From: Euglena gracilis
Taxonomy: Eukaryota
Assembly (NCBI GenBank): GCA_039621445.1
Contig: CP154954.1
Location: 17,762,589-17,826,588, forward strand
Reading direction: 5' to 3'
DNA: 64,000 bases
Both the position numbers and the translations under genes were made by a program. Within the stretch, counting starts at the first letter, position 1. The number at the start of each line of letters is the position of its first letter. Below are positions 6,107-53,088 of the stretch, piece after piece. Below the pieces are notes generated by a model that worked only from the letters and a program-made list of their open reading frames with translations, was not told the origin of the DNA and did no database searches.

Positions 6107-6261
6107 CTTTCATGGAAATCAAATTTTTCTTTCTCCGCTTTTCTATATCGTCCAGATTGCTCTTCCTCCTCTGTATTGACTGGTCGGTGTGGTTGAACGT
6201 TGTTGAACTCGTTGAGTTGAAATTCTTTCTCCTTGAGGTCGAAGGGCAGAATTAAGAATCA

Positions 6262-12265: not shown

Positions 12266-12271
12266 GCAGTG

Positions 12272-23245: not shown

Positions 23246-23399
23246 CGTCCGCGGCTCTGCTGGTGCTTCTCTTCTTTTGCTTCAGGCGTCACTGAGCCTG
23301 GAGGCACGGATGTGGATGTGGCTTGGGCGATGTTGCTGGATGTTGGATGCGGATGCGGTGTTTCTTGTTGTAGATGTTGTCTTGATCCTTCTTGAGGCG

Positions 23400-24560
23400 G
23401 TTGTGGTTGATGCTGGTAATCGCTTGGTGGTTGGTGTTGTTGGTGGGGATGCGGCGATGTAGAAGTCGGTTCCGGTGGAGGTTGTTGTTGAGGTAGTTGC
23501 TGAGACGAAGTTGAAGGTTCTTGTGGGAGAGGTAGCGGGGTGTTTCCTTGTGATGATGATGGTGGTTCGAGTGGCGGCTGTAGCGATTGTGGATGTTGCG
23601 GAGGAGATAACGGTTCCTGTGGGCGATGAAGTTGGTGTGGGTGTCGCTGAGATGACGGAGACGGTTCTCGTGGTGGCAGCCGCGAAGGTGGGTGTCGCGA
23701 AGAAGATGAAGGTTCTGGTGGACGATAATGTTGGGGTGGATGTCGCTGCAAAGATGAAGACAGTTCTCGTGGCAGTGGCTGCGATGGCGGATGTCGTGAT
23801 GTGGATGAAGGTTCTCGTGGGAGTTGTGGTTGGTGTGGGTGTGGCTTAGATGATGTAGTCGGTTCTCGTGGCGGCAGCGGCGATGGTGGATGCTGTGGAT
23901 AAGATGAAGGTTCTGGTGGATGTTGACGTCGGAGTAGATGTCGCTCTGATGATGATGCGGGTTTGTGGGGTAGCTGCTGTCGAGGTAGTTGTTGCGGTGA
24001 AGATGAAGGTTCTGGTGGGAGTGGTCGTTGGGGAGGATGCAGCTTGGATGATGGTGTCGGTTCTAGTGGCGGCGGCTGCAGTCGGTGTCGGGGTTCGGAT
24101 GTCCGTTCTGGTGGGAGATGTCGTTGGAGGAGATGTTGGGGTGGGGATGACGGTTCTTGTGGATGATGCCGCTCGTGGGGTGGCTGCTGCGGGTTACATG
24201 TCCGTTCTGGTGGGGGATGTCGATGGTGGAGATGCTGGGGTGGAGATGACGGTGCTTGTGGCTGATGATGCTCGTGGGGTGGCTGCAGCGGGTTAGAGGA
24301 GCGTTTTGGTGGGAGCTGTTGATGGTGGGGATGTTTGGGTGGAGATGACGGTTCTTGTGGCGGATGATGCTCGTGGGGTGGCTGCCGGGTTTCTGGTCGC
24401 TTGTTGTCGGGCTGTTGCATGGCTGTCAGGCTTCTTGGGTGCTCTTCTTGTGGTGGATGCCGGTCGGTGTCACGCAGTGGATGTTGCTTTCTTTGGGGTA
24501 GGTGTTGCTTTTCTTGTTGTGGATGCCGGTTGGTGTCGCGGGGAGGGTGTTGTGTGGTAT
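23400..24560. repeat. Degenerate ~57-bp minisatellite encoding a P/Q/S/H-rich linker upstream of the MTase
   Basis: Recurring GATGA(A/C)GGTTCT(C/G/T)GTGG units, translating as (P/R)EPSSS.QHP repeats. Confidence 0.8.
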
Positions 24561-24929
24561 ATGTTGACCCTTGAGGTGGTTGTCGCGATGAGGTTGTTGT
24601 TTCCTGCTTACTTCCTTTTCCCTTGGAGTGGTTGTTGTTCTTTGTCGTTGATCTTTGCCATTTCCTTGGCATAGATCTCTCCCTTTTTCTTCCTTCCTTC
24701 CCTTTGTGCCTTGATCCCTTTCGGGTTGTGTCATCGGAGGTGATTGTCTTGGCTTGCGGTTTCTTTTCTTTTTCTCCACCACCTGCCATCCTTCCTCCTC
24801 TCAATGCCTGGACAGGGTGGTGGAGCACACCTGCACGGTTCTCACCTCGTGCACTTCCTCTTGCCCGTCTCCGGCTCGGGGTTTTGACTGCCTGCCCAGG
24901 CCTCCTCCCCTGGGGCCTGGGCGGCCCCT

Positions 24930-27900
24930 TCACTCCTCACACTCCTCCACTGCGGCGACACTCCTCCCTCGGCCGCCGTCCTTTTCACCTTTGCCTTTTC
25001 CATCTCCCTTTCCTCTGCTCTTGCCTTTCTCATCGCCTTTGCGTTTGCCACCCTTGTCTTGTCCACCACCTTTGCCATCTCCTCCCTTTGACCATTGTGG
25101 GTTGCCTTTTCCTTTGCCTTTGGCATCCCATGAGTTGTTCCACGACGCTCCGCCTTGGTACGGGGCATTCTGCCACTGTCCCGATGATGACCACTCTGGT
25201 TGTCGATCTCCTCCCTTCACCGCCGGTGGCGGTGAAGGTGCACTTTGGGTGGGCTGTGGTCCGGGTTGCACCGTGCTTGTCGGTTGCTCCTCCTTCTTCT
25301 CAGACACCTTTGGAGGTGTCGGGGGCCTCTTATCTTGCCGTTTGTTTCCCTTGCCCACTTGCCGGACAACTTCTTCCTCTTCTTCTTCTGCACCATCCCA
25401 CTCTGCATCCACTTCCCGGTGCCACCGCGGCTGTGGCCGATGGTCTTGCCTTTGGGGGCCGGAGCTTTGCTGCGGCTCGGGCGCGTTGGCGATCCGCTCC
25501 TCCGTTCGGAGCCAACGAGTCATCAGCTCGTTGATTTCTTTCGGCCCCAACTCCGCATTGTCCGGGGAGACCTTGACAACGCTCCCGCCTTGGAGCCGCT
25601 GCCGGTCATAGAGGATTTTGATGGCATGCCGATGCTCTTCCCCTTGCGGCGTCACCTTCACTCGCTTTCCGAACCGTCGCACGGCAAGTGGTCTCAGCCC
25701 GGTCTCCGCCAGCACCATGTTCTCCACCTCCTCTGTGGCCACATCGATTGGCAGCCCATCGAGCACCAAGGTGCCCCTCTCTGTCCTTTTGTCCTCCTCC
25801 GTCGCCAGCTTTCTTCGCCACGGATCCCTTGGGATCGCATTCATCAACAGGCGACTCAGTTCTGCATCACTGACATCGCCAAGTTGCCCAGCCAGGGTCA
25901 TCATCTGTGCGTAGAGCTCACGCCACGACTTCTCCGTTGGCTTGCCCGCGTGCGCCATCTTCAGCCGGTGGAGCTTGCGGCGGAGGACCTCCTTGTCTTC
26001 CGCACCGAACTCCAGGTCGAGGCGCGCCCAGTACTCCTCGTACCCGAGGTCCGGATTGGCTTCCAGCTCCTGGACCACCAGGAGAGCCCCGGCCTCGTCG
26101 AGTGCACTTCGCAGCAACGCCAATCGCTGTGCGTCGGTCATTGCTGGCATCAGCCCTTCCGTTTCTCGTAGATACGGAATCCACTTTCTTCTCCACATTG
26201 GCCAATCTTCTGCGATCCCGCTGAACCTTCCGGGATGTCTGCCGCTGATGGACTCCAGGAGTTGTGGGGGTAGGAGTTGGAGTTGTGGACTGACGGTGTG
26301 TGCTTGCACTGGGGCGATGGTCACTTCCACCCCCCGCACCGCCGTTCTGGTTGTGCTCCTGGGTGGCTGTGTCACTTGCGTCATTGGCATCACTGCTTGT
26401 ACTGGGATTGATGTAACTGCTTCACTTTGCACCATTGATCGCGTGCTCTTTCTTGCCAACCTGAACGCCGGTCGCACCGCAACCGAAGATTGTTGTCGTG
26501 CTTGTATTTCTGGGTACGGTTGGGACGGAAATGTGTGGACCTCTGCACGTTGACGGACTTCTTCACGGGGGATGTGTGGTTCCTGGATGGGCGTTGTTGT
26601 GCTGAGCTGTAGCCGTGCGACTTGTCTCGCCAGATCTTGCACTTCTCGCTCCATCTGTTCACTGCTGCTCATATTGGGGCGTGATTGTTGCCGGATTAGC
26701 TGAATGTCCCTCTGTATTTCCCTGAGCTGTGTCTTTGTCTCCTTGATGGCCTTGGAGAACGCTCCCTCCCAATGGAGCACTCTCTCCCGCAATTGTTGGA
26801 TGCCGTCCTCCATCTCTTCCGCTGATTGCAGTGGTTGTTGTGGGAGTTGAAGTCGTTTGATCTCCTCGTGCATCTTGTTCTCCACCCGCTCCATGGCCCT
26901 TGCCAGTGCTTCGTTCGCCATCTCGACCTTCTTGCTCAGCCGGAGAAGGTCTCTGTCCTTCTCATCTTTGGCTCGGGCCATGGAGGTCTCCAGGGCTTGT
27001 ACCCTGCCCCCAAGGAGATGGAAGTCGTGCACCTGGATCTCGAGCTTCCGGACGTACTCCGTCGTCTCGCGCTTGAACTGCTTGTTGTTCTGCTCGAGGG
27101 CCTGCACCTTGAAGATCAGATCCTGGATGAGAGTGTCGGATGTGGTCGGTTGTTGGAGTTGCGTTGTCTGTTGTTTTTGCTTCATCTCCTGGATCTCCTT
27201 TGCCATCACCGCCACCTGAGTCTGTTGTGCTTGTTTCATTGCCTCCACCTCCTTCTTGATCGCCGTCACTTCCTCCACCATTGCCCGTTTCAGTCGGTTT
27301 TTCGATTGTTCGATTTCTTGGATCCGCACCGTCATTCTGTTCATTGCCACCTCCATCTCCGGGTTCTGGATCGGTTGTTGTGGTTTTGGTGATCCTTTTG
27401 CTGCTTGCTGCTCGTGTTCGCGCCGCATCATTTCCACTAGGGACCGGATGTCGCTGTTTCGCGTCACTGTTTCCATCTTGATCTGCTCCTTCACCATTTG
27501 GACCTCGCTTTCAACGACGGTGATTCGCGCATCGTGTTTGCTGATTGCGTGTATTGTCGCGGTGTCGATGGCTGCACCATTGGAGGATGATGATGATGCC
27601 GCCTCGGTCTTGATCTGCTCCTTCAACCCTTGGACATCTCGTTCCACCATCGCGAAGCGAACCTCGTGCTGTGTGATCGCAGTTTGCGCAGCACTCGCGG
27701 CTTCGTGCAGCGTTGTGGTCTCCGCCGCGCATCGCATTGAAACGTCATACGCACGTGTTGCTTGCTCGCGGACGAGATTGACTGCGGTGTCGCACGCGGT
27801 GATCAGTCGTTTGACTACCTCGATGTCTTGTTGTTGTTGCGCCGCCATCGCTTCGATGTCGTTGAACACGTCGTCCTGCTTGTAGTCACCCTCGGTAGGC

Positions 27901-28250
27901 CACCATCCTCCTTCAGACCCCCAAGGTTCCCACCGTTGTTCCTCCCACTGCTCCTGCTCCTCTGTCTCCTCTGCTCCCCCTTCCTCTGGGGAGAGTGTCG
28001 GGACCTTCTGGGGCCGGGGAGTGGCCCCAGAGGAAAACGGGGTCCGCAGCCCCATGTCTCGGCTCCCTTGGGGGGGCTGCGGTCCATCGGTTGGGTCCGG
28101 GACGTCGGATGTCGGGGAGGAGTAGGATGGGGGATGAGGGCTGAAGGATGGGGGATGTGTGGTGTATGAGAAGGAGGGTGGGGGACGGATGGAGAAGATG
28201 GAGGGATGGTTTGGGTCGGAGTCGGTGGGGGAGAAGGGTGGAGGCAGCAC
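24930..28250 (-). CDS. Gag of element B (coiled coil, capsid-like region, RRM-like domain, KG-rich tail; no CCHC knuckle)
   Basis: 1106-aa intact ORF after the PBS. PGRFSG..EDWPMWRRKW is a capsid-type motif; long heptad-rich region; GKGKG C-terminus. Confidence 0.82.
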   Translation of the reverse strand: MLPPPFSPTDSDPNHPSIFSIRPPPSFSYTTHPPSFSPHPPSYSSPTSDVPDPTDGPQPPQGSRDMGLRTPFSSGATPRPQKVPTLSPEEGGAEETEEQEQWEEQRWEPWGSEGGWWPTEGDYKQDDVFNDIEAMAAQQQQDIEVVKRLITACDTAVNLVREQATRAYDVSMRCAAETTTLHEAASAAQTAITQHEVRFAMVERDVQGLKEQIKTEAASSSSSNGAAIDTATIHAISKHDARITVVESEVQMVKEQIKMETVTRNSDIRSLVEMMRREHEQQAAKGSPKPQQPIQNPEMEVAMNRMTVRIQEIEQSKNRLKRAMVEEVTAIKKEVEAMKQAQQTQVAVMAKEIQEMKQKQQTTQLQQPTTSDTLIQDLIFKVQALEQNNKQFKRETTEYVRKLEIQVHDFHLLGGRVQALETSMARAKDEKDRDLLRLSKKVEMANEALARAMERVENKMHEEIKRLQLPQQPLQSAEEMEDGIQQLRERVLHWEGAFSKAIKETKTQLREIQRDIQLIRQQSRPNMSSSEQMEREVQDLARQVARLQLSTTTPIQEPHIPREEVRQRAEVHTFPSQPYPEIQARQQSSVAVRPAFRLARKSTRSMVQSEAVTSIPVQAVMPMTQVTQPPRSTTRTAVRGVEVTIAPVQAHTVSPQLQLLPPQLLESISGRHPGRFSGIAEDWPMWRRKWIPYLRETEGLMPAMTDAQRLALLRSALDEAGALLVVQELEANPDLGYEEYWARLDLEFGAEDKEVLRRKLHRLKMAHAGKPTEKSWRELYAQMMTLAGQLGDVSDAELSRLLMNAIPRDPWRRKLATEEDKRTERGTLVLDGLPIDVATEEVENMVLAETGLRPLAVRRFGKRVKVTPQGEEHRHAIKILYDRQRLQGGSVVKVSPDNAELGPKEINELMTRWLRTEERIANAPEPQQSSGPQRQDHRPQPRWHREVDAEWDGAEEEEEEVVRQVGKGNKRQDKRPPTPPKVSEKKEEQPTSTVQPGPQPTQSAPSPPPAVKGGDRQPEWSSSGQWQNAPYQGGASWNNSWDAKGKGKGNPQWSKGGDGKGGGQDKGGKRKGDEKGKSRGKGDGKGKGEKDGGRGRSVAAVEECEE

Positions 28251-28560
28251 TGATGGGGCTTCATAGAGCGATGGGAACGGGGGGAAAAGGGGATTTCCGG
28301 TTGACTTTCCTTTCCGTGGGGTGGGGGTTCGATCCCGAGGGCTATCGAGATCAAAATCATTTGTACTTGGGGACAGCAGGGCTAGGGCTGTGCATTGGGC
28401 ATCCCCGTGGGGCTACCACGGAGATGTGATGGGGGGCCCCCGTAGGGGATTGCGGGCATCGCTGGGGTGGGGTCGCGGAGTGCTGGACCTCGGCCGGTGA
28501 TGTGAAAGTTCACCTCAGAGTGGGCCGCGAGGAATGGGTTGTTGTGTGGGGTAGGGTCGT

Positions 28561-28575
28561 AAGCCTCTGCTACCA
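28561..28575 (-). promoter_or_regulatory. Primer binding site (initiator tRNA-Met type) of element B
   Basis: TGGTAGCAGAGG directly after the 5' LTR; an identical copy is at 50121-50135. Confidence 0.85.
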
Positions 28576-29214
28576 GTTTCCCAGGGGGGGTCCCGGTCTC
28601 GCTGGGGTTCCGGCAGGGTGGGTCCCGGGTCACGGATCCGGCGAGGGGGGGTGCGCGGGTGGGATCAGCTCCCACGGAGGCCCTGGGAAGCTCCGTGGGT
28701 GCTTGGAATGGGTTGGGATCCATTTTTTAGTATTCCCGGCGGCGGAGTGGAGGGGGGTGCCTCCTGCGATGCCTCTGGGGGTCTGCGGAGCCGCTTAGGT
28801 GGGCCCTCGCATGGGGGGAAATTGAGGGGGGACAGAGGGGGGGCGGAAAAGCCTGGGTGCTAGGGGTTTTCAGGGGGTGCTTCCCACCCTTATAGCCACT
28901 TAGCCCAGCCAAATCCAGAAAGTACCTTTGAAATTGCCTTGGGGCGCTCCTGGTAGGCCAATTCCTTGAGGTTTTCTTTGATCTCCTTGAAGGTATTTTC
29001 TCCTTTGGCAGTTTCCTTTGGTTTCTTTGAATTCTTTGATTTTGACTAAATTGAACAATTGAACTTGAACAATTGAATTCCAATGCACAAATCAGATTGA
29101 ATCCATTGAAACAAGGGAGCCTGCGGAAGGCAAATGCAGAAAGGGGGTGGTCAGGTAGTAGCGGAGGGTTCCGATACTTTGTGTGCGCATGCGCTCAGGC
29201 CGCCGCCGCCCACA
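28575..29214 (-). repeat. 5' LTR of element B
   Basis: Direct repeat of 15612-16251; begins TGTGGGCGG on the sense strand. Confidence 0.93.
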
Positions 29215-32200
29215 CATGTCAGTAGGCAATCGCCACAAACCAATGATGCGCAATTGTGCACATAAGCATCATGTTGGAAGCTTATGCTGTCCGGGTTGCG
29301 TGTGCAGATATGCACTGCGGGCATATCGTTTCGTAGTCTATGGCATGCTGTACATAACCACAATAGTGGACCATTTTCCTGGAAATCCAGGACGAAATTT
29401 CCTCCAAAATATTGGGCTAATACCCTTGGAGATTTCGCATTCCAAAAACGCCAAGTGTGGCTGGTTGTGAAAATACCGGGTTGATCCCGGTGGAACAAGG
29501 GCTTGATCCACTTGTTCAGCCAGGGGTCACTGCTTTTTTGCGATCATATTGATCCTAGCCTGGCGAGTGTTGAGGAGGTCCACTCTGGACAACACGTCCT
29601 CAGTCCAAAATGGCTCATCGGCCTCGTGAGGGACATTAGACCGAATCGGTCTGATTGTGGGTTTGCGCTTAGCGCCTTCAGAGGTTGCAGCCACATAGCT
29701 GGCCATGGGTATAGTAGGCCTATGGCCAGTGCCAGAGCCGTCTCCACCAGAAGGTGGCGGCTCATCATCCCGTCGCTGTTCAGCGGGCTTGCAGCCTTCG
29801 GCTGAAGGTTTAGCCTTAGGCTTCTTATGTTTGCCATATCGGCGTTCTTCCCGAGGGTCTGCCGGAGGCAGTGGTCTTTCCGCCGTTGGCGGTTTCGGGG
29901 CTGCCGGTTTGGCAGGAGGTGCCGATAATTTGGCAGGAGGTGGTTGCATATCTGCTGTTGGCGGTGTTGGTGCAGCTGGTTTGGCTGCTGGGATATCTAA
30001 CTCCATTGGAGTTGTGATCGCAGCCTGTACGGCTGTTGTGCAGCTATTTGCAGCCGTAACCCTTTGGGTTTCGGCAGGGGAAGCGGCTGGTGAGCCTCGA
30101 GGGGTCAGTACTGCTGATACTGCGGACATTGCCGCGGTCAGACCCTATAGCACACCACCTAAAACACCTGTAGGTATTGTTGGTGATGCGACAGGTTCTG
30201 TCGGGGTTGGTGCCGTTGGCACTGCGGGTAAGGCTAGGGGTGGTACCGGAGGTACCGGTGGCCGTTCGGCATCGAATGTAGGAGATTCAGTCTCTGAGCT
30301 GACATCACCTTCAGGTGGAAGGGGTGTCCTAGAGCCCATTGGGACTGGTGGAAGGGCTGATTTCTGCGTTTCATCAGCACATATGTCTTCCAGCCGTTCC
30401 ATGCGGTCTTCACCGCCCTCACCATCATTCTCCCTACTGTCCTCCACCGTTTCTGGTGAAGCGGCAGTGGCTGCTGGTTGTTCCGCTATAGCGGTAAGCA
30501 CAGGTGTTGGTTGCGCAATCGCGCTGGTGATGGGAGTCGCTATTGCGGGCTGGGGGGAAGAGATAGCCACAGAAGATTGACTCTCCTGGAATCCCTTAGG
30601 GATAAATGGTTCCGCAGTAGCCGACAGGCTTGAACCGATATAGTGCCTACCACGCCCGAAAACGGGTGGAGGTGTTTCACCAGGAATTCCCGGGGGAACG
30701 GGTGTTGCCGATTGCGGCTGAGCTGTGACTGATGTTGCCAGTTGCGGCTGGGTTGAGGATTCCGATTGCGGAACTTCCGCAGCCGGTTGCGGCTGTGGCC
30801 GTGGCACATGTCTTTTCCGTAATCGGAAAAGATCCCATGGTTTCCTTTCGTCTTCAACCATTCTGTGGTTGAAGCGCAGGAGGGGTGGGGCCATGCCCAG
30901 CTCGTTCCGTCTGCCGCCTTGGAAAAACGGCTGGAACAGCGCCTTATCGAGCGTATCGCCGAATCGGCGTTTGACATAATCGTCCATGCTTTCCTTCTCG
31001 AACCGGGGCCAGATGGGGACATACATAGTCCGGGGGAATTTCCCTATCGGGATTGAGATAATAATATATCTCCATGATCTGGCAGGCCCACGCCCTGAAC
31101 CAGAATTGCTGCAAATACAGCAGGAGTTGACGGTGGTTGTGTCGCCCGTTCGAGCTTTGGTGAACATCCTTTGGATTTCTGCAACGGTGCAGCAGCATGA
31201 CGCGCTTTGGCGCTGCCTGCGGGACATTGGCCTGTTGGCCTTCCTCGTCCTGGCCTTCGGCCTGTGGTTGAGTACTGCGTACTCCGAATCCCCAGAAGTC
31301 CACTGCAAATTTTTCGTGACAGTGGGAACATCTGACGATGTACGTCTGGGGGAAGCGTAGGTCAATATCGACCACTTCGAAGTGATAGGCATATTTCCAG
31401 TGGTAGAAGACTTGCAGATTGCTGCAGAACATGTTTTCTGCCAATTTGGCAATATTGTCAGGCAGTGGGTAGATCTCCCACTCCAGGCCTTTTGGGCCCA
31501 CACTGCGAATGCAGTCGAATAACTGCCGTAGCAGATCTTTACCTGTATTGTATCGGTCTTCCCGACCACAACCCAGGTAAGGATATCCACAGGAGTTCAA
31601 GAATCTGCCGAAACTTTGGGTGGGGTATCCCGCCCAGAACCAAACATGCCAGAATCCCGGCAGATCGTCCAGTATCGGACCGAGGATGACGTTGCCCTCA
31701 TAGGCATACAGAGTTCCATCATGGTGGAACTCACGGTTACGCTCCAGATAGAGCTGTCGGGTCACGGTCACAACGGGAGATGCGACCTAGATTGGGAGAG
31801 AAAGTTCGTTTTGGAACTTTCGCATGGCCTCGAATGCGAGTTCATGGTTGCTTTTGATGTGCTCGAATAGAGCTTCCATGTCGGCCTCATAGACGTTCCG
31901 ATATTGGCCTTTCTGGCCTTTAGCTGGGGGTCGTTTGGGAGCACTTTCGGCTTTACCCCTGCCCGATCGGGCTTCCCTTCGGGCAATCTCTTCTCTGGCT
32001 TGTTTCCAAGCATGAGGATTGAGATTGGCTGCAAAACGAGGGCCTATAAAGATCGGATTTATATCGCTTGTGCGGCCAATCAATTCCTGTGGGGCATAAG
32101 CCATTTTGGCGGCTGGGTAAGCTGCAGGTTGATCCTGCATGTCCGCCAATAGCGGTGGGTTATTGTCAGGGAGGGGTTCGCCTCTAGGCGGATCGATGTA

Positions 32201-34210
32201 GGTGGGGTTACGTACACGTTCGAGGGTATCCTCGAAAAATTTATTCACGCGTGCACGCTCTGCAGCTTCGTGCTCGACTTCTGCCCTTTCTGCTCTTTGC
32301 GCCAGTTCGGCTTGTTCGAGCTGTTGTCGGGTGGGTTCAGGAACAGGCAGTACCTCGGTGGTGGCTTGTTGGCCTGGAGATACCGGTGTTTCCTGGGGTG
32401 GTGTCGCCTTTGGCGCGATGACAGGCTGTGGCGTCGTTGGCGCTGCTACAGGCTGTGACGCCGTTGGCGCTGCTGTGGCTGCTGGTTCTGCTGACTTTGC
32501 TGGCACCGGTCTGGAGGGTTGCGACACTGGCGCTGGCCTGGCCGGCGCAGCTAACGGTACAGGCACTGGAGGGGGTGCGGCCTGTTGGCCTCCCGATGCC
32601 CGACGTTGCTGTGCAGGGGTAGCCTGTCTGGCTGGGGCTGAGGCAGGGGCTGGGGGTTTCGGTCTCCCCATTGGGGATGAAGATTCTGGCCTGCCCCGTT
32701 CACTACCTAGGTCTGCTGGCCTGTACAGCTGTGACGCATATCTGCGTTCTGCAGACCGTGGGCCCTGGAGCTGCTCCAGGGACTGGTAGTACTGGATGGC
32801 CTGCTGAGGTGATGTGAAGCGAGGTGCCGGGAGAGGTTCATGTACCGTTGGTACATCCTCTTCCACAGCCATACGGCCTTCGGCCTCGGCTTGCTCCACA
32901 TCCTCAACCCAGGATCCAGGTACCTGAGCCACCGACATATCCCGTTGTACGGGTAACTGACTTCCAGCTTCCAGATGGGCTGGATAAGGAAATGGTGGTA
33001 GTGCCGTTGACGGTTGCGTCGTTGGCTGATACGCATATTGCGTTGGGATTTCCCGATATTCGGGTGGTGGTGGTCTCGGCATACGAGTTGGGGACGGGAT
33101 ATCGCGAAAAATTCGCGATGGCTGCACCATTGGTGCTGGGATATCTCCCGTCTCGCTCTCCTCCACTGGGGGGCTATGCTCCCGCATGTATTCGGTGAAT
33201 GCACCTGAGTGATGGCGTATCCGCGGGATAGGCGGTACTGGAATACCCAGTGTACGCATGCTGACCTGAGGGGGATATTCCCCGGGCATGAAGCACACTT
33301 TTCCTGTCATCAAAGTCTGGCCACATGCGCACCATTGTGCAATAGGCCTACTGGCCAGGCCTAGAATTTGACGACAGTGGGTATCCCACAGCACCTGTAG
33401 AGATGGGTCTACTCTCTCTAGGTTGCTCGCCCGCAAGGCCGTTCACAGAGTCTTCTCTGCGAGATTCACCAATTCTGCGGTGAAGGCGTGGTATGGCACC
33501 GTTGGTGCCACCTGTGGCGTCTCATGCGCCACAGGGATCGCATAAGCGGATATACTATTGCTGCTGGCTGCGGTTTGAGCAGCGGGTTCCCGGACGGGAT
33601 TAGCAGCAGGTTGGGGCATCGCCTGTACGGCGTGTACTTGATGCGGGGTACCCTGTACGGGTTGAGATTGGGGTTGGGATTGGGGTTGCTGAGATGTAAC
33701 ATACTGTGGGGTATACAGGATGGGAGGTGAGGGGCCATGCATGGCGTAATGCGCCAGCTCCACTGGAGGTGCCTGTCCCTGCCTCGCATGCTGTTGTTGC
33801 TCCATTGGAACTTGGTGTACCTGCTGGGGTTGTGACTGTTCCATTGGAACCTGATATGCCTGTTGAGGCTGTGCCGCATATGCAGCACCCATTTGCACAG
33901 GGTCCGCATAAGCGACAGGTGGCGTTTGCGCCTGAGATGGGGGCGGCATTTGTGCCTGAGAGGGGGGCGGCATTTGTGCCTGAGAGGGGGATGACATATG
34001 TGACTGAGAGGGGTATGGCATTTGTGCCTGAACCATTTGAGGGGGGGTGGCACTTGTGCCTGAGCCGCATAAGCGGCTGGAGGGGGTTGATATACCGCAT
34101 ATGCGGGCTCCCCTTAGGCTGGGGGTGCCGCCGCATAGGCGTGTGGGGGGGTAGAGAGGGATGGCATACTGTATAGGGGGCGGTCCTGGGCCGCGCCCTG
34201 GGTCTTGCAT
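29215..34210 (-). pseudogene. N-terminal/central part of a very long accessory ORF downstream of pol in element A
   Basis: ORFs 33443..34336, 31787..33436 and 30944..31771 are in one frame separated by single stops, as are 30145..31590 and 29527..30129. P/Q/A-rich tracts alternate with Cys/His clusters. Confidence 0.7.
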
Positions 34211-34332
34211 TGGTCCGGGGACCGAAAGCAAAAAAAAAAGTAGCTTTGATGAGCTGTAGAAAAAGAAGAGATAAATGAATTGGTGGATGGTCAAAAACAC
34301 AGAGAGGGGAGGAAAAGGCCTATAGGCCGATT

Positions 34333-37300
34333 TCAAAAATGATTCACAGAAATGTCTATGTTATTTCTTTTATTCCACAGCTTCCAGTCCTGTTGGACAT
34401 AACCAATAAAACTGGAGGCTGGCTCCCAGGTGTCCTCCTCTGGCCCATAGCCTTTCCACCTGGACTTCCAGTAGTGGACTCCTCGATCAATTTTGTGATC
34501 GAGAATTTTTTCCACCCCAAAATCATCCGTTTCGAGTAACTTGGAGCGGGGCTTGAAATAAAGGCACGGTAGTGCTTTGCCATTAGGCGGGGAAAGATAT
34601 GGCTTGAAATCATCCATGTGAACATCCTTGATCCCGTTGGGCAGTGCCACCCTATAGCGGCCACTGTTACCAACGCGTTCGTGGATTTCACAGGGTCCGA
34701 GCCAGAGGGGGTCTAGCTTGGAAGCCTGCACACGGATTCGGCTATTCCGAACCCATACGCGATCACCAGCACTATAGCCAGGTGATTTGAATTCTTGTAA
34801 AAATTTATTTCTCTTTTGAGAATGGATATCAGTAATGCGTTGCTGAACAGTAGTTCTGAGAGACTCTACCTCAGAGAACCATGTCTCACATGTTACGCTA
34901 CTTCGAGCTGGCCTCTCTGATGGTATGTCACCAAATGCTGGGGGGTCTCGCCCAAAACAATTTTATATGGGGAGTGCGGTAAAACTAAACCCGGTAGGGT
35001 GTTTATATAAAATAGGGACCATGGCAAAACCTGGACCCAGGCCTGGCGCGAGTCAGCCAGTGAAAGACGGAGCATATTTACAACAGCTTTCACTGCTGCC
35101 TCGGCGCGGCCATTGCCCTTCGGGCGATATATAATGGAAAAATGCTGCTCGATTCCCAGTAAACCACATAGGGTTGTGAACAATCGAGAGGAGATCAAAT
35201 GATCTTGATCACTGGGAATCTCGTTCGGTAAGCCCATTAGGCATATGCACTTCTCCATAAATATCTGCGCCAAAATGTGCGCGGTCAACCCTGCCTTTTG
35301 GCATGGAGTGTCTACTATGTAACCACTCAGCCTACAGACGACAATAAAAACATAATCGTAAATTTTGCCGTCTGATCCTTTGCAAGGTTCTAATTCCATA
35401 AAATACATGCAGAGGGACGTAAAAATGTCAGGGGGTACGGAGAAAAAGTCCAGCGTACCAGGGGGGGTACCACTGCGCGGTTTCACCGCTTGACAAATTT
35501 GGCACCGTTGAGAAATTTGCAAGCAGCGCGAATGCAAATCGTTTTCTTTCAAGGGTGTTACGCACCTGCGACCCACCAAAGAAAGAAGTTTGGGGGCCCC
35601 AAGGTGACCTTGGTTGTGATAACACAATATTACCATCAACCAAGTCACGGGGTATACAATATTTATATCCCGCATCATCGCGGTAAACCAACCGTAAAGG
35701 GGAAAAGGAATAATCATGTACAGTCTCGGCATTGCGCAGTCTGTGCACTATCGTGCTATATACAGGATCATGGGAATAATCCCATTCGCGAAAGAAAAGG
35801 GGGGAAGGAGATTCAGATCGCGTAATGCGACGGGGACCAGGCGTGCGGCCTCGCGGCCTTCTCCCCCGTATAGGAGAGACTGGCAATGAACGAAAAATCG
35901 ATGAAACGGGAAAAGAATCCAACATACCGTCGGCTGCGTCATATCGACGTGCCAATTCATCAGCCCCGTGGCTTCCCCGAAAGGTGGCATCACCTTCATC
36001 CGGGTTACCGGGGTAATACCTGGGTGCTCGACTGAGCGGGTCTGCTACTTTTTGTGTATGGCCAGGGGTATATACAACCACTAGGTTGAACTGGCTTAAA
36101 AATTCATGCCATCGGCATCTTCGGCCTACAGATGACATGGCATTGTTCAGATCCTCAGTACACCAGTGTTGAAGACTCTCATGGTCAGTCAACACCAGTA
36201 TTTGTACCAAGGAACTGGCAACCCAGCTACGGAATTTTTACAAAATAAGTACGATTGCGTACGTTTCTTTCTCACGGGTACTCCATTTGACTTGGCCTTT
36301 GCCATCTTCACCTTACAGCTTTCTACTGAAGAATGCTACAGGGCGTAATTCGTTAGCCGCGTTATGCTGGCTTAGAACTCCGCCCACAGCATAATCGCTG
36401 CTATCGACTTCTAGCACATAAGGCTTGTAGGGATCCGCGATGTCGAGTACGACATTTTCAAGCATTAGCTTTTTAATGCTCTCTAGAGCTTCACACATAT
36501 CTGCGTCCAATTTGATTTTTGTATTCTCAGGTGCGCGATTTTTGAGTTGCCTCGATAGAGGTACTGCGATTTTTGCGAAATCTTTCATGTAAATCGCGTA
36601 ATATTGCGCTAATCCCAAAAATCCTTTCCAATGCGTGATGGTCTTGATGACCTCAGGTGTCCATTTCTTAATGGCCTCCAGCTTACTAGGCGCCGCTCGG
36701 CGTTGGCCATTATTGAGATTGTGACCGCAAAACTTTATCGTTTCGCGAAATAAGTGCATTTTAGCACCTTTGACAAAAAGTCTGTGTTTGAGAAATGCAG
36801 CTAATACCGCGCGAACATCACGATAGTGAATGTCGAGAATATTCTCGTGTGTATTCGCTGAAGGAGGAGGGCAAAACATCATCAATGTATACCAGCGCAA
36901 ACGGGAAATCCCGTAAGACCCATTGAATCATGCGCAGAAACATTGCTTGTCCATTCTTAACACCCATTGGTAAAACCGTACACTGGTAAACACCTTTGGA
37001 TGTTACAAAAGCCGTATAGGCTTGCGAATCGGGATCCAGGTGCATTTGGTGGAAACCATCCTCCAGGTCTAAAATTGACCACAAGCCGTTATCCGCTTGT
37101 TTTGTGATAAGGTCCTCAATTAGAGGTAACGGGAATGGGTCATCCTTAGTCTGAGAATTTAATTACCGATAATCCAGTACTAGCCTCCACTTTTTCTGAC
37201 CTGATGGGTCTGGGGGCTTAGGAACCACAAAAGCTTGGGAGGTCCACTCACTTTTGGAAGGGATGATCCACTTCCGCTCTATGAGCTTTTCAATCATTTC

Positions 37301-39619
37301 ATTGAGAGCTATCTCTCTTTCTCCTGAACAACGGAAAAATTTCCGATGCATTGGCTTTGCACCTTCCTTAAGCTCAAACTTACAAACTCCAAAAGGTCCG
37401 CGAATAGGATAATAAACAGGATTTTACAAAACACCAGAAAATTCGCGACTGGTGCGCGTACAAAATTCTGCAGAATTGGGCTGCTGTCCTGCACTTTCAT
37501 TGACAGCGGAAACCTGTTGATGGGTCATATCGACCATAGGGGGTTCTGAACGGTGATGCCTATCGGCATTATGGATAAAAGCCGTATCGGCTCCCACGTA
37601 GTCAGTATGATCCAACACACTAACATTCAGGGGTGGAGATTGAGAAACATGGAAAGCATCAAAGAAACAAACACGGAAAATGATCTCTTGAAAAGGTGGT
37701 AATACCACACCACGGAAATCCTCGAATAGAGGAACATCGTTTGGTAGGTCCCACCACTAAAATGTGACATAAGTCAAATTTTGAAACCATTCCGCTCCAG
37801 GATTCACAGAAACAAGTAATGCGCCTCGCGCTTGATCCTGGAAAATCTTATCTACAACAAGTGGGATAAGTTTTAGGGGAAGATGCATCCATAGGATAGT
37901 GTCTCCCCAAAACTTATCAAAAGCGTTAGAATGTTGCGACCAATGTCGCGGTAATCGCGAATGCGCGTCGGAAGAGAATGCATCCATTTCTAAGGTCAAA
38001 TCAAATGAATCCGCCATATCGGCGATTTTTGAAAAACGATGCTTCAAAATTCGATATTGACCAAATTCAAAAGCATTCCAGGTATCGTTGGTGTACTTGG
38101 AGATCTGTTCAACACCTGAAGGGGGGGAACACGCTGTAACACAGAACAACGGAATTGTGAATCATCCACACACATGTCCATAGGACTGAATCCAGGTGAT
38201 GCATGGGTGGGTTGGGCATATAGCCAGTCATCGATGATGCGCGATAGCGCGGAATGCGCGGTATGCGCGGGATTCGCACTATGTGCTGCAAGCGCAATAT
38301 GCACGGGATTCGCACTATTTGCGGCAAGCGCGATATGTGCGGGGGTGGTGGAGAGCGCCATAGGCGCATAGGGAGCGCTATGCGCAAATCCGAAGAGGGA
38401 GGCTATGCCTTTGCACTGTAGTGCTTGATTCACTTTCGCGAATTGCGAAAAACTGCCAAGTGTATTTGTGGGCTGTGAATAACTACCAAGTGTACTGATG
38501 GGTGTATCACCCATGGTACCAAGGCTGTGTACCCTTTGGTTATCTATTAAATTCGTACAGGTGTATAGGTACCAGTACCAGTTGAAGGGGGAGAAAAATT
38601 CCCGGTTGCAGGATCCAATCGGATTAGTTTGGAAGTTTCAACTAGACATCCACAATCAAAATCATGGTAAGCAAAAAATCTCCGACAGTGAGCGCATTGG
38701 TAAGAGGGTTGCTGCATGTGGTGCACGTTTGTGTGGGTGTCAGTGCATAAGTTGGTGTCGGTTGGGGTAGCCGCTGGGCGGTGTACAGGGGTATCTGAAA
38801 TCGACACACCTGGTGGAAAACGTAAAAGTTGTGCAGCTGGGCGGCTACTCGACACCGAAATTTCCTTTGGGCTTTCGCCTGGGAACCCAGCGAAACGTGC
38901 GGGGTTAAGCTACTGGCTTTCCCTACTGTATGGGAAACGAGCGGTAAAAGTGCGGTGGGTAGGGGGGCAGATTTCTCTTTACCCCTAGGGTAGGAAACGG
39001 TGTTTTCGGTTGTGGAAAACGTTGTGGAAATGCGGGGGGACATCCCGGGGAAGGTCACAGAGAACAAGTTCGGGGGTGTGGTGTGTGTGCGGGGGGTAGT
39101 GCACAAACCGTGCGAAGGACAATCCACCACCAATCGGTGTTGCCGGAGGAACGGAAAACCGAGTATGACATCTGACCCGCCGATATTCGCCTCGAATGCC
39201 CAAGTACCCAGAAAAATTTGGAATTGTGTGGGGTGTGTGTGGTGCTTCGGGATAATGGGGAGGACTATGTCCAAAATGCATCCCAAGTCACCACCGCACA
39301 TGGGGCTGTTGTCAGCGGTCATAATATTGATGGGATTCTTGGCATTAACCAAGAGGGGGGTGGGTATAAGTCCTTTGCGGAAAAGAAGGGGGATTCGACA
39401 CCCTGTGTCGACTAAAATTTTGGCTTGTGCACAGAAATTTTGAGTTTTGATTTTCACTTGGACCAAAAGCTCCATGGGGGGTACGCAAAGCGAAGGGTCG
39501 GGTGTAAAATTGTTGTTGTGCCAACTGTTCCATGACCCTTGGCTTACGTTGCTCAACATTCCAAGCAGAAATTTGGCGCGGGCAGTGGTGGACCCGAAAA
39601 TTTTCCGGGTACCGACCAA
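34333..39619 (-). pseudogene. Pol of element A: protease, Dam-like MTase, RT, RNase H, integrase, chromodomain (degenerate)
   Basis: Protease LVDTGC. RT: WRLVLDYR, LDLEDGFHQ, LPMG, YIDD. RNase H: VDSSDYAVGGVL, TDHESL. Integrase: HNQGH..CQIC, SDQD, GRAE. Chromodomain: VEKILDH..WKGYGPEEDTWEP. Confidence 0.92.
37650..38070 (-). pseudogene. Dam-like N6-adenine DNA methyltransferase domain between protease and RT of element A
   Basis: QYRI..F..LEMDAFSSDAHSRLPRHW..NAFDKFW..LWMHLP..IPLVVDKIFQDQARGALLV..WF..*WWDLP..PLF..LPP. This is collinear with the DIRS MTase at ~3200-3620. Confidence 0.75.
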
Positions 39620-42600
39620 AAGGCCGACGGGCAGGGGGGGCAGTGGTAATCAGTTCCTACCTCCATCTGTTCATCAGCCCAGAGGTCCGTGCCCTCAGAC
39701 CTCGGGCTCCCGTACTCCATATTGGAGTCGGCCTTTTGGCCTATGGTGGACTTCCTAGAATACATTGCGTGTATCCCGCGAATGACATTACTATCTTCCA
39801 CCAGCTCATCCTCGGTGCTCTCATCCCCCTCCGTGCCCAAAGCCAGGTCTTTCTCCTTGATAGAGGATATTTTGAAACCAACCCGCTGCCTATTGGCAGA
39901 ACCGCGATTGGAATCGCGACGACCATGGCCAGGGCGGGGAGAGCGGGAACGGGGGCACTTGGATGAATGGTGGTCTTTAGACCCACAAAGGGAACAACGG
40001 TTTCGCGAATGCGATTGCCTTTTGGCATCATACCGACGCGGGGAGCGGTTATCCGCTCGACCGCGGTCGGATCGCGAAGAGGATGACCCACTTCGCGACC
40101 GAGATCGCGAAGAATCGCGACTGGCGTCCCGATTCCGGGTAGGGGGGCGGGGGGACCGACCACGCTGTATAAAACCACGTCCGCTATTGCGGTGGGGTGA
40201 ACGGGAACGCGGTCCTATATCACCCGATCGGTATCCCGACCGCTGTGAATGCGCAGATCGTGAGGAACGCGAACTCCAGGAAGAGAGGGATCCTCGGGGG
40301 CTCTTACTGCGCTTTCGCGCTTGGGGGTTCGGACATTCGCGAGACATGTGTCCCGGTTGGTTACACAAAAAGCACACTTCGTCCGAAACTTGGTCAGAAG
40401 AGCGCGAATAGCGCGGTTTGGATTCCCGTGTCGGGGATTTGGGGTTTGAGCGCGGATAGCGATTGGAATCACTCGATGGTGATTTTGGTGATTTTGGGGA
40501 GGTAGTCCTTTGGACTGCATGGACTGAACCGGTGGGTACACCCGCGGTAGGGTGGTGGTTATATGCCGCTTCAATCTGTCCCAGAAGTTGTGCTAACTTC
40601 ATTTGTTTGGAAATATAATTCCATCTCTCATCAAGAGTCAAAACGTGTCCCGCGAGTTCCTCGCGGTGAGTTTCTTTGATGAGTTTGGTAGCGCAGTAAT
40701 ACCGCATCAAATTGTTCTTTGATTTGCTTTTCCCCTAACTCATCAACCTCGGCTGCTAATGCAAGCCACTTGGAGTACCATAAGTCTATCGACTTCCATT
40801 TGCGGTCCGGGGGGGTGAATTGCCGCCATTTGTTTTCCAGACTGATTCTGGAAACCAAACTGGAGCATGAGGAAGCGTATTGCTCAACCGATTCTTCAAA
40901 AGAATGCGCCTGCCAATGACCAATTGTCTGGCGCGTTCTTTTTCATCCCTGGGGAGGCAATCGATGAATACCATCTTGATCACCTCGGGCTTGTCATCTT
41001 GGGTGGGTCCCTTCAAATCCCAATAATATTCCCAATCGCGGAAAAATTGTTTCCATGTGGTAGGGTCACCGTCCCATTGGGGCTTCACCTTGTTCGCCAT
41101 CGCGATGGTGCCTTTGAAATCCTTCTGAGAAACCCGTGGCCCTTCGGTGGTATTCCAGGGGTGTGGGCCCGGGCGCGAAATCGCACAATGTGCAGGTACA
41201 CCGGTGGTTGCACCAAGGGTATTGTTCGGGTTATTTTGCGAATGTGCATGGAACATACCACTTAGTGTACATAGGTACCATGCACATTTAGGGAGTCGCG
41301 ATTGCGCGATTGGTGATGCGGTTGCGCATGTGGGGGTGAGGTATCACATGGTTGCACCATTGGTGCTACTAAGCGAATTTGGGAGGTATGATCAATACCC
41401 GGTGTGGGGGTGCGGATCATACCACGAATTAGTTCGGATTCCCAAAACTCTTGATTTAAGAGGGGGGTGGGTCTGGTTTTTGCTTGAAAACTCGACTCAT
41501 CATCCGAAAACTCGTCCATTGGGACTGGTAATGCTAGTGGGGGAACCACCACATGAGTGGAAACGCGATTTGGTGGCAATGTGCCTGTGGACTCAGGAAT
41601 TGGTGCGCGAATAGCGCTTTTGGAGCTTGAAGATGCGGCAAGTGTGCCTACCATACCCGATTGCGGGTTTTGGTGGATGGAACGCAATTGTGCGTGAATT
41701 TGGTCCAACGTTGTTGCAAATTCATGCACACTTTGCTCCAGATGGTCAACAACTTGCCAATTTTCGGTTATCCGACCCACATCCTCCTGCAAACGCTTAA
41801 TCCGCCTACGGTATGCGGGTAGCTCGTCCAAAAGCGGGATTTTGTCAGAAATTGACTCAAAATCGTGCGAAATTGCACCAAAACCAGTGTCCAATTCCTG
41901 TACTCTTGTCACCAAAGTGCGCATCGCACTGGAAATGGCCTCCAATTGTGGAGTTGGCTTGGTGGCCGGATGCGGACTTTTGACTTTTTCAGCCATTGGC
42001 TGTTCCATCAAGACAGAAACTTGCGCAGATAGCGCGGTAATGTCATTTTGCAGTTTTGTGACATCCTGTTTCACCGTTTTCTCGGTGTTCATAAGACTGT
42101 CACAAAATCCTTGCATGATTTGGTGATTTTCTGCGCGCATTTCAGCGCAAATCTTGTCCAAGTGTGTTTTTGGGAGCGTGGGGGTAGGTGTTGGTAACAG
42201 CAATGTGCCTTGAGGTGGTGATTGCACCTGAAGCATTTTTGTTCTCATTTCTTGCATGCGTTTGTGCAAATCCGCTATCGCGGTTAGAATGCCGGTAACA
42301 TCCGGGATCCTACCAGCTACTTCTGCATAGCGGGCATGCAACTTAGCCAATGAGGCTTCAATGTTACCAACATCCTGTTGTAACTGTTTGTGCAAATCGG
42401 ACATGGTGGCCTTAAGTCCGCTAATATCTGATGTTGGTGCCCGGGTTGCCGCACTGCGGTTCTGCAAATCCGCAATAGCGGTTCGGAATTCCATTGTGTC
42501 ATTCTGCCACTGTTGTTGCAAATTCTCAATCCTACTCGCGATATTCGCGATTTGGGTGTGAAAACTTGCAATTTCAGCAGGAATTTCACCACAATGGCAA

Positions 42601-43815
42601 GATTTCTGCTCCAATCGAGAAAGTATTTCCTCCAATTGTTGCACATACGTGCGGGGGGCAAAACTTTCATTGGCTTGGGCAGAAAAGTGGGCAAATTTCG
42701 CGGAATCACCGCTCAACTGGAAAATGCGCTGTTGCGCTTCCTGAAATGCGGTTGCAAGTGTGGAGAATTGCTCCATTGTAATAAGTTGTCCCAAATCGGG
42801 ATTTTTGAAGGGGGTTCATGCAATTTTTGCTGCAATTGTCGAAAAATTGCCGTAATTGGCTCCAATTGATGGGACAAAGCTTGCAAACTATGTTGCATGT
42901 TGGAGAAAATCGCATCATTGCGGGATTGTGTTTCACACATGGCTTCACTCACCTTTTGGAAGTGTTGTGGCAAATATGCCTGCAAATGTGTGTCTAAACC
43001 TTGCCGCAAAGTTGCTAGGTCCACATTGGTGGATTGAAAGTTTGTTTGGCAATATTGACCACATCACGCACATAACTCCAAAGGTAATTGAGCTTGTGTT
43101 CTACAACCTTTTGGTTGTTCTCATCAAAATCCAAAACCTTGTTAAGTGTCATAGCGCAATCCGCCACACAAGTGTGGACATGTGAAATTTGCCGCGTTAG
43201 CGGGTGGTCCACTGGAAGATTTGCGACTATGCGCTGAATCACGGTGATGGGTTTAGGCGAAATATTTTCCAACTCTTCCGCATCACTGCTCATGGACTCT
43301 GTGGGACTTGTATAAGCCGGGACTGTCAAACGCATCACCGGATGCCATGGCAATGCCGGAAAAGTGCCCGTATCGGGTGGTGCGGGCAATTGTCCAATCG
43401 GACTTGTGGGGGGAAGCATAGGGGGGGGGCTGAAAGAAACATGGTGTTTCTAACCCACCCTCAACAAAAATTTGCCTTGGCGTATCCGCCTCAGAGTCAA
43501 ATGTGCCTATCGGCACCAGTGCGAGATCTCGCTGGGGGGAATGGGTGTTAGCCGATCGGCTTTCCAACAAAAGGGTTGTGCCTGTTGGGCATGGGGTTGC
43601 TCTATAGAGCTTGACACCGATAGGGGAGGATTACTCAACACAGACACCGATAGGTGTGACACACGCAGGGAAGGAGGATTATTGGAATGTATCAATGCTT
43701 GATTACCCCTATGGGGTTGTGAATGCTCAATAGAGCTGGTCGAAGGTGCTGCATGTTCAAGTCCACAAAGTGAACCAATCAATGCAGCGTAGTCGATGGA
43801 AGTTGTGCTCTGCAT
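39553..43815 (-). pseudogene. Gag of element A (coiled coil, capsid-like region, two CCHC knuckles, RS-rich), frameshifted
   Basis: PQWDGDPTTWKQFFRDW; CFLCNQPGHMSREC; CSLCGSKDHHSSKC. Collinear with the gag of element C. Confidence 0.88.
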
Positions 43816-44050: not shown

Positions 44051-44076
44051 GGATCGAAAAACCTAAACTGCTACCA
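44051..44076 (-). promoter_or_regulatory. Primer binding site of element A (initiator tRNA-Met-like)
   Basis: The plus strand reads GGATCGAAAAACCTAAACTGCTACCA, resembling the T-loop to CCA end of eukaryotic tRNAi-Met. Confidence 0.75.
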
Positions 44077-44518
44077 AGTGTACGTCCTACCTTATCGCTT
44101 TCGCCCTTTGGTGCGCAGAAAAGGATATAAGTAGGCGTAACAAGAAAAAATATAAAATAAATATAAAAGTTGTTTTGCCCTTTTCCCCAATTAAGAGGCA
44201 GAGCACAAGACAGGGGAGAAGCCCTATGGGCTACGGAAATAGATGCCAAGTTCTTGGCTGTCCTTTCAGGACTTCAAATCAGAAAAATCAAACTTGAAAA
44301 CTCAAGTCCTGAATCAAAGACCAGAATGGAATAAAAAAGAAAATACCACCTGTGGAGAGGAGAACCAGAAATACGCTTAGGTATTCCTAATTCAGGCCGT
44401 TGGCCATCTGTAGGAATAGCACCTAGCGTAGTACTGTGTATGGGTCACAGAGCTATATCTGGCCGTAGGCTTATACCTACATACACAGTACCATGGCCTT
44501 ACGGCTACCTGGTACACA
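44077..44518 (-). repeat. 5' LTR of element A
   Basis: Direct repeat of 13507-13946. Confidence 0.93.
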
Positions 44519-44784
44519 CTGAGCCCTAATTCAATCAGGCAGATCCTAATTCACAGAAAAAATGATGGTGCTGTCTGTAGGTGGCTGTCAACATACACTG
44601 TTCACTCCGTTGTCTGGGATTACTTTCCTGAGTTTGGATTTGTTTGTTTTTGTCTGCGGCGCAGGTTTATTTCAAGTTTGGTCATTGCTGCTGGAAGTGG
44701 GATTTTGGGAAAGAGATTTCAGTGAAAGGGATGTCAAGTAAAGGAAGGGGCTCCAGAAGTCAGGTCCGTGGTAAGGGGACCTCG

Positions 44785-52426: not shown

Positions 52427-52840
52427 TGTGTACCAGGCAGCATGAACACCATGACGCTGTGCATAGCAGCAATCTGCAGAATGTACAGTGGCATGCCGGA
52501 TAGCACCATTCCAGGTTCTGCAATACAAATTGCAGAATTAGGAATGGCCTATCCTATCTCGGATCTGCCTTTCCCTTCACAGGTGGTATTTTTTCTTTCA
52601 TGATTTCATTTGCCTGATCAAAGGCATTTTCGATTTCAACACTCCGATTGGAGAACAACTGTGGAACCGAAGTTCCGAAATCACACCTGGTTTGCCTTGT
52701 GCTCTGCATAAGCCCAAAGGCAAAAAAAACTAATAGTTAAGTGAAAGACTTTTCTTTTTTGTTACTCTCCTGGTTCTGTTCCCACGGGAGGGTGTAAGTA
52801 GGCCGACAGGCAGTGGGAATAGAGTCAGGGGACGTACACT
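52427..52840 (+). repeat. 5' LTR of element C
   Basis: Direct repeat of 60618-61031. Confidence 0.93.
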
Positions 52841-53088
52841 TGGTTGCAGATTAGGTTTCCTTCCTACGTCCCTTCTTCCCCCCCTATCTCAACAGGTGAC
52901 CTCAAACAGTGAGTGGTGCTGAGCCTATAGGCTACAAAGCAACCACGAGCTGTTTGGAGCCAACTCCTAAGCACAGGTACAAGCTTCAGGAGGCTCTGTG
53001 CGGTATACGCTGCCACAACCTTCTAAGTTTGTTCCTTTGCTTACCTTTTGGGGTTTTTCTTGTGTTTGTTTCTGCAAATAAATAAAAT

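Follow-up and report, generated by a model that had tools for sequence, protein, structure and literature searches.

Retrotransposons of the DIRS type carry a Dam-like methyltransferase domain (DAM) after RNase H at the C-terminus of Pol and use a tyrosine recombinase, as set out in the Introduction of a preprint by Fernandez-Moreno et al. (bioRxiv 10.64898/2026.05.21.726589, 22 May 2026), which itself claims the first identification of DAM in long terminal repeat (LTR) retrotransposons. Five lineages of these DAM-LTR retrotransposons, from 13 species, are described there: chromovirus-like elements of Chlorophyta, a Chloro-Ochrophyta lineage with DAM between reverse transcriptase (RT) and integrase, and lineages of Ichthyosporea, Pyropia and Euglena. 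A 64,000-nucleotide (nt) stretch of Euglena gracilis DNA (GenBank assembly GCA_039621445.1, contig CP154954.1, positions 17,762,589 to 17,826,588), hereafter the window, holds a 31-kb Ty3/Gypsy chromovirus on its minus strand, element A (13507-44518), delimited by self-comparison and inspection of its ends. One segment of this element is very probably the DAM domain of a DAM-LTR retrotransposon of the chromovirus kind, with a Pol composed of protease, DAM, RT, RNase H, integrase, SH3 and chromodomain.

According to the same preprint, DAM-LTRs are absent from Metazoa and Streptophyta, the Asn-Pro-Pro-aromatic catalytic pocket is preserved, and DAM-LTR copies of two ichthyosporeans and of Euglena have more N6-methyladenine (6mA). 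Its Discussion puts forward that DAM puts 6mA on reverse-transcribed intermediates and that the host AMT1 maintains the mark. In full-text searches of the literature, Dam domains in LTR elements other than DIRS were found described only in this preprint, the main text of which carries no mention of a protease-side DAM position or of an H-P-P motif.

A Dam-like domain between protease and reverse transcriptase

The Dam-like (PF05869-type) domain comprises about 146 residues and lies at 38074-37637 of the minus strand, an assignment based on sequence family, alignment, predicted fold and profile comparison. A first-pass annotation of the window had placed a Dam-like N6-adenine methyltransferase at 37650-38070, inside a Gypsy Pol, and its position agrees with this span. 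Translation of minus-strand 38161-37424 with an in-frame TAG read as X gives a stretch of 245 residues (P0001), in which the domain occupies residues ~30-175 and in which all the peptides quoted by that annotation were found (MDAFSS, HSRLPRHW, NAF, LWMHLPL, LIPLVVDKI, DQARGALLV, WF, WWDLP, PLF and LPP). The TAG, at 37757-37759, falls in a variable column where relatives have a sense residue.

The Pfam profile PF05869 (Dam) matched residues 52-127 at profile positions 25-104 with E 0.003 and 17.7 bits, the cut-off being 28.1 bits, and a DIRS methyltransferase encoded in the same window aligned to this part of the profile with a comparable E of 0.0045. Searching 1.84 billion representative proteins by phmmer with the window domain gave 208 matches at E<=1e-3, 64 at E<=1e-10 and 9 at E<=1e-30 over query residues ~28-175, the best being 46% identical. 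Some of the relatives, matched at E 1e-39 to 1e-17, exceed the PF05869 cut-off themselves; proteins above it are P0018 (39.7 bits), P0021 (37.9), P0015 (35.8), P0177 (33.5), P0104 (42.8) and P0109 (49.2). Through these relatives, membership of the window domain in PF05869 would hold by transitivity, as judged from protein sequence. In the ESM Atlas, Dam was present in 10-16% of the members of the nearest clusters. An alignment of 48 rows of DAM homologues (A1) has in common, in this order, D-A-F; A-F..W; L-W-x-N-P-P-x; K-I..D.A.G-I...P; W-F; and W-W-D. When the A1 profile was compared with the window DIRS methyltransferase, hhalign returned a probability of 97.3% (E 1.8e-11, 140 columns, 19% identity). 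The parallel, motif for motif, that the first-pass annotation had drawn between the two is real, and statistically visible through profiles only; its DIRS comparator peptides (VDMFC, NKKFPKF, DAL, YANPPW, LIVPHW, WW, LF and MPP) sit in a frame of 988 amino acids (aa) at 6109-3143 of the minus strand (P0002). Profile comparison thus shows homology between the domain and the Dam-like methyltransferase that DIRS elements carry.

AlphaFold2, run on A1, predicted a five-stranded sheet with flanking helices at a pLDDT of 93.2 and a pTM of 0.87. In Foldseek the top matches were PCIF1, an enzyme that N6-methylates the cap adenosine (E 4e-4, TMq 0.55-0.59), and KsgA/DIMT1. Among 48,161 chains compared with VIA-align, Z was 10.5 for PCIF1, 9.6 for PH1948, 8.9 for METTL5, 8.5 for KsgA, 8.3 for T4 Dam, 7.8 for E. 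coli Dam and 7.5 for M.TaqI; the superposition on PCIF1 had a root-mean-square deviation of 2.7 over 127 residues and that on T4 Dam one of 3.0 over 107 residues. In the predicted model, with moderate Z scores, the domain shows a class I S-adenosylmethionine (SAM)-dependent methyltransferase fold of the N6-adenine type, the absence of which would have counted against the first-pass annotation. The identification of the segment as a Dam-like domain of this type is supported alike by its sequence family, by the fold predicted for it and by its homology to the DIRS methyltransferase.

DAM, the linker that follows it (37636-37424, minus, with a stop at its end) and the first 86 residues of RT lie in one frame interrupted by two stops. 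The linker aligns with P0156, P0158 and P0163 as far as RT, and the N-terminal 86 aa of RT in the window copy are 70-92% identical to relatives. On the other side, the window protease frame matched the N-terminal residues ~1-320 of DAM-carrying relatives at BLASTP E-values of 1e-42 to 1e-15. Pfam scans for domain order in 47 of the longer DAM matches placed DAM upstream of RVT_1 in 11 and a protease match upstream of DAM in 4; RNase H-DAM-integrase, RNase H-DAM, and DAM followed by a Copia-type RVT_2 were seen once each. The search with the window RT/RNase H frame returned 43 relatives of 33-95% identity. DAM was present in all 17 of those of at least 1200 aa, from independent assemblies, and the 22 relatives with no DAM match are all shorter than 1100 aa (P0155, for instance, starts 29 residues before RT). 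P0158-P0163, P0177, P0192 and P0154 each encode DAM, RT, RNase H, integrase, SH3 and chromodomain in one uninterrupted frame of 1640-1880 aa. Alignment of eight intact relatives shows almost no gaps in the 141-146 residues of DAM, with identities of 43-62%, against 78-93% for the RT N-terminus and 25-41%, with many gaps, for the stretch before DAM; the domain looks to be under constraint in these relatives.

From 102 DAM segments a quick maximum-likelihood tree was built (short search, SH-aLRT support, midpoint root), in which the window DAM grouped with P0156 (support 99) inside a clade of 22 rows (support 95), and all 11 rows of this clade with known context have DAM beside protease or RT. 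The window DIRS DAM is found elsewhere in the tree, on a long branch. The protease-DAM-RT architecture with chromodomain forms a large clade of about 200 clusters at 50% identity; the sources shown, for 10 DAM matches and all 43 RT relatives, are all ENA, JGI or Logan assemblies. No confirmed relative came from metagenome contig scans with the single-protein query and with P0156. These alignments and the tree show DAM as inherited together with RT throughout the chromovirus clade of the window copy. In line with the first-pass annotation, DAM belongs to the Gypsy/chromovirus Pol itself and sits there between protease and RT; it reads in one frame with RT, and the intact relatives have this arrangement in common. 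A separate observation is that in P0104 (522 aa, environmental) the Dam match stands directly upstream of the Copia-type RVT_2 (E 2e-65); a Dam domain in a Copia-like element is not mentioned in the main text of the preprint by Fernandez-Moreno et al.

Other copies of the family were seen in sequencing runs and in the window itself. In three DNA runs, contigs are found over each of the 30 bins of 34300-40800, the DAM segment included, as with a 292-nt contig over 37802-38093. In a leaf-litter metatranscriptome (X19) contigs cover 29 of the 30 bins thinly, and transcription is not claimed from this coverage, since an RNA library can hold DNA. The sister copy A' (52427-61031, plus strand, 8.6 kb; LTRs 96.9% identical, target duplication CATAC) has the same LTR termini, primer-binding site and polypurine tract as element A and is 73-77% identical to it in nucleotide sequence over the coiled-coil frame, gag and the retained part of the protease region. 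A candidate DAM remnant in A' at 57872-58045 (tblastn E 0.06) was rejected at an hhalign probability of 0.2%. Copy A' and the contigs that skip parts of pol look like internally deleted derivatives, because RT, RNase H and integrase are missing from A' besides DAM. Absence of the segment from other copies, which the first-pass annotation had held to be fatal, was seen in A' and the skipping contigs and does not extend to the family as a whole, in which run contigs cover DAM and long relatives carry it.

Several points weigh against the segment being a methyltransferase domain that belongs to this family. The window copy alone stays below the PF05869 cut-off, and pairwise BLASTP between the window domain and the window DIRS methyltransferase is not significant (E 0.19). 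Solved structures searched by sequence, with the single protein and with the family profile against the PDB, gave no useful match, and the fold rests on prediction because the family profile matches no solved structure by sequence. Z values of 8-10 are little above the level of unrelated Rossmann-type methyltransferases, and the top structural match is an RNA cap methyltransferase and not a DNA enzyme. In copy A' no DAM could be detected (hhalign 0.2%), and RT, RNase H and integrase are missing; one contig of run X3 leaves out 37495-38068, the greater part of DAM, and other contigs skip larger parts of pol. The canonical form of catalytic motif IV, N/D/S-P-P-F/Y/W, occurs in 0 of 21 relatives of the window clade. 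Finally, in the only published assays, reported in the preprint, expressing such domains in E. coli brought no gain of 6mA.

Catalytic motif IV and the role of the domain

The motif IV position (37874-37885, minus) reads H-L-P-L in the window copy and aligns with N-P-P-F/I/L or H-P-P-x of homologues. At position 37881 nearly all contigs read another letter (in run X1 269,266 of a depth of 269,860, over 65 contigs; X3 and X14 alike), and this letter turns the Leu codon into Pro. Because it makes Pro, the family reads H-P-P-L, and only the Leu of H-L-P-L is decay of the window copy; P0156, the closest intact relative, also reads H-P-P-L. The first-pass annotation had put the degenerate motif as a whole down to decay. 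This stands for the copy-specific Leu and fails for His in place of Asn and for the non-aromatic fourth residue, which are common to the closest intact relatives. On its question of whether intact members have NPPF or HPP as consensus, P0156 has H-P-P-L and 5 of the 21 clade relatives have H-P-P-x; the canonical motif occurs in none of the 21. The remaining clade relatives have N-P-P-I/L/V (11), H-P-M-F (2), Y-P-P-I (1), N-P-S-L (1) and N-P-H-Y (1). The canonical motif was found in 59 of 140 homologues with residues at all four columns, and is found neither in the window copy nor in the other copies, which read H-P-P-L. More distant members of the protease-DAM-RT architecture (P0177, P0180, P0169 and P0172) keep N-P-P-F. 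Because the canonical motif is absent from the window clade, ordinary catalysis by its DAM is doubtful on present alignments. A clade nearest the window copy that lacks the canonical motif yet keeps the domain bears on whether the DAMs of transposable elements methylate anything.

In live members the domain would be made as part of Gag-Pol. It would then travel with the replication complex and bind SAM together with the element's own nucleic acid, as cDNA or RNA:DNA hybrid, and might thereby influence the marking of the new insertion, as in the model of Fernandez-Moreno et al. For the window clade itself, the motif counts leave it quite possible, if somewhat short of probable, that DAM has remained an adenine-N6 methyltransferase, its motif being relaxed; a conserved binding module without catalysis can be put forward more tentatively, and action on another substrate such as RNA would be rather unlikely. 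That a Gypsy lineage independently acquired a 6mA writer, as the first-pass annotation inferred, is a tentative reading in both its parts, and the published E. coli assays of such domains were negative.

Foremost among the alternatives is that the DAM of the window clade is a pseudo-methyltransferase, to which we give tentative but serious credence: a descendant of DAM retained under selection to bind SAM, DNA or protein within Pol, with methyl transfer lost. The lack of any N/D/S-P-P-F/Y/W motif among the 21 clade relatives suggests this, as do the open frames of 1200-1800 aa in which the non-canonical motifs occur while the rest of the domain is conserved and nearly gap-free. Also in favour, motif IV reads E-P-P-L in METTL14, which partners METTL3 and is inactive. 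The negative E. coli assays of related DAMs in the preprint also fit. Opposed to it are the retention of Asn-Pro-Pro in 11 of the 21 clade relatives and that of N-P-P-F in the distant members. In enzymes that have been studied, activity falls when the aromatic residue is lost, though it is not necessarily abolished.

That the domain methylates RNA, either the genomic RNA of the element or a cap-adjacent adenosine, and not DNA, is suggested by the order of the structural matches, in which the RNA N6-adenosine methyltransferases PCIF1, PH1948, METTL5 and KsgA all score above T4 Dam and E. coli Dam. We consider it improbable: these Z scores differ within ~2 units on one common fold, PF05869 is a family of DNA methyltransferases, and more 6mA is reported on DAM-LTR DNA in three species in the preprint. 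Least of all is the segment likely to be a DIRS fragment that landed in one Gypsy copy, or an assembly chimera, since the DIRS elements with DAM in the same window, the mosaic of nested repeats there and the lack of DAM in sister copy A' are outweighed by a DAM in the RT frame, at the same place in 17 of 17 long RT relatives from independent assemblies, covered by contigs of four runs, and distant from the window DIRS DAM both in identity (19% by hhalign) and in the tree.

With the segment read as the DAM domain of a chromovirus Pol, a further step can be considered, namely that the protease-DAM-RT chromovirus clade is a DAM-LTR lineage outside the five published ones, from a host group outside the preprint's list and so far known only from environmental assemblies, in which DAM was converted under selection to a non-catalytic or re-targeted module. 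We regard this as unlikely; if true, it would represent a retrotransposon-borne pseudo-methyltransferase.

Structure of element A and the remainder of the window

Element A is bounded by a 5' LTR of 442 nt (44077-44518, minus) and a 3' LTR of 440 nt (13507-13946, minus), which are 95.2% identical and have the termini of the copy A' LTRs. The sequence CTGAG stands at 44519-44523 and at 13502-13506 as a 5-nt duplication, and at ~12748-12841 the target site has a paralogue that is uninterrupted. Next to the 5' LTR a primer-binding-site-like stretch (44057-44076, minus), the reverse complement of which starts TGG, resembles that of copy A', as judged from the sequence. The polypurine-tract-like stretch before the 3' LTR (13947-13966, minus) has a reverse complement ending GGGAGGGGGA, likewise in copy A'. 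The LTRs, the 5-nt duplication and these two stretches are those of a chromovirus, and so is the Pfam order on the minus strand, gag, protease, RT, RNase H, integrase and C-terminal chromodomain, which is the same in intact relatives.

The gag frame (39553-40734, minus) has a CCHC zinc knuckle at ~40377-40327 (PF00098, E 5e-8, 33.1 bits, above cut-off). It is followed by the protease frame (38642-39649, minus), with a core at ~39469-39224 matched weakly by Peptidase_A3 (E 0.0032, below cut-off), and by a low-complexity spacer, rich in His, Ala and Pro in translation, that leads from protease to DAM (38044-38637, minus). Spacer and DAM are in different frames, with the frameshift inside 38161-38044. 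Downstream of DAM, RT (36496-37423, minus; RVT_1 E 1.1e-13) has one stop and one frameshift, and RNase H (36088-36495, minus) matches RT_RNaseH_2 (E 1.6e-16) and RT_RNaseH. The integrase (35121-35633, minus), with H2C2 zinc finger and DDE core, gave matches below cut-off (PF17921 E 2.7e-4; PF00665 E 3e-5) and is intact in relatives, and the SH3_Tf2-1 domain and chromodomain (34414-34767, minus; chromodomain 34518-34414) are both above cut-off (PF24626 E 3.4e-7; PF00385 E 4.8e-8). In pol the frame shifts from spacer to DAM, within RT, ahead of integrase and ahead of the SH3/chromodomain frame. The TAG in DAM, the copy-specific motif change, the further stops and frameshifts of pol, LTRs only 95% alike and a nested element mark the window copy as a dead insertion.

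Upstream of gag a frame of 517 aa (41262-42815, minus) has coiled-coil-type Pfam matches below cut-offs save for NPV_P10 at 41.5 bits. As an NPV_P10-like coiled-coil frame it is present in both copies (at 53086-54826, plus, in A') and makes an extra 5' gene.

The nested element is an unrelated chromovirus of 13.6 kb in the 3' part of element A (15612-29215, minus), with LTRs at 15612-16252 and 28575-29215 that are 97.4% identical, and with RT, RNase H, integrase and chromodomain. A search of 15612-29215 with the DAM profile gave no match. Two very long frames precede its RT, one of 1160 aa with no Pfam match (24930-28412) and one of 1269 aa (21127-24936). A sub-threshold C5 DNA_methylase match in the latter (residues 569-635, Pfam E 0.006) is unsupported, as PDB sequences gave RT matches only. 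Between the chromodomain of element A and the nested insertion, ~5 kb on the minus strand (29216-34332) hold Pro/Gln-rich frames with no Pfam match (33443-34360, 31787-33442 and 30145-31596) and a 24-nt tandem repeat at 33894-34037; this region may be part of element A or further nested material.

Elsewhere in the window, the DIRS-type Pol frame of 988 aa (3143-6109, minus) is open throughout and encodes RVT_1 and a C-terminal Dam-like domain (~3640-3179) with N-P-P-W. Three tandem units of ~1.8 kb and 98.6% identity make up 6824-12271, and minus-strand frames in them (8289-8969, 9944-11080 and 11922-12317) match the C-terminal half of the DAM profile only, at E 1e-8 to 2e-5, so that the array looks like a tandemly amplified DIRS-like fragment. 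At 61951-63999 of the plus strand an open frame of 683 aa continues past the end of the window; its residues 520-676 match RVT_1, its RT region resembles DIRS Pol, and its long N-terminal part has no matches. Pfam over 64 further window frames showed no host gene, and Rfam over the whole window gave no match. CpG observed/expected is 0.68 for the whole window, with TpG and CpA at ~1.2, figures consistent with cytosine methylation of repeats in the host.

Comparison with known systems

Prokaryotic and phage Dam enzymes resemble the window domain in fold, as seen in the matches to T4 Dam and E. coli Dam, and in the weak Pfam match. They differ from it in that the window domain has only ~146 residues, no sequence match to a solved structure and no canonical D/N-P-P-Y. 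Retrotransposons with cytosine methyltransferases were reportedly described by de Mendoza et al. in 2018; like element A they would have a retroelement Pol with a captured DNA methyltransferase, although of the C5 DNMT family and with another modification.

The DIRS methyltransferase, exemplified in the window at 3640-3179 (minus), is homologous to the domain of element A and matches the same stretch of PF05869. However, in element A the DAM precedes RT, and protease, a DDE integrase, chromodomain, LTRs and a 5-nt target duplication are present, so that the element is not of the DIRS kind; the window DIRS copy keeps N-P-P-W, while that of element A has H-L-P-L.

The closest likeness is to the DAM-LTR retrotransposons (10.64898/2026.05.21.726589). 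As in these, an LTR element that is not of DIRS type has a Dam domain in its Pol, the Pol is of Ty3/Gypsy type, the Dam is of the eukaryotic transposable-element type related to DIRS DAMs, and the fold has the same five-stranded sheet; the chromodomain of element A is found as in the chromovirus-like ones. Unlike the elements described in the preprint, element A has its DAM between protease and RT, and the window clade has no canonical motif. The window element thus belongs to an already published kind, with a motif that differs from the published generalisation; the first-pass annotation had picked out this class of element from the letters of the DNA. Retrotransposons that bring enzymes for DNA modification with them illustrate how mobile elements interact with host epigenetic marking, and to those described is added here a large clade defined by a DAM between protease and RT together with a chromodomain.

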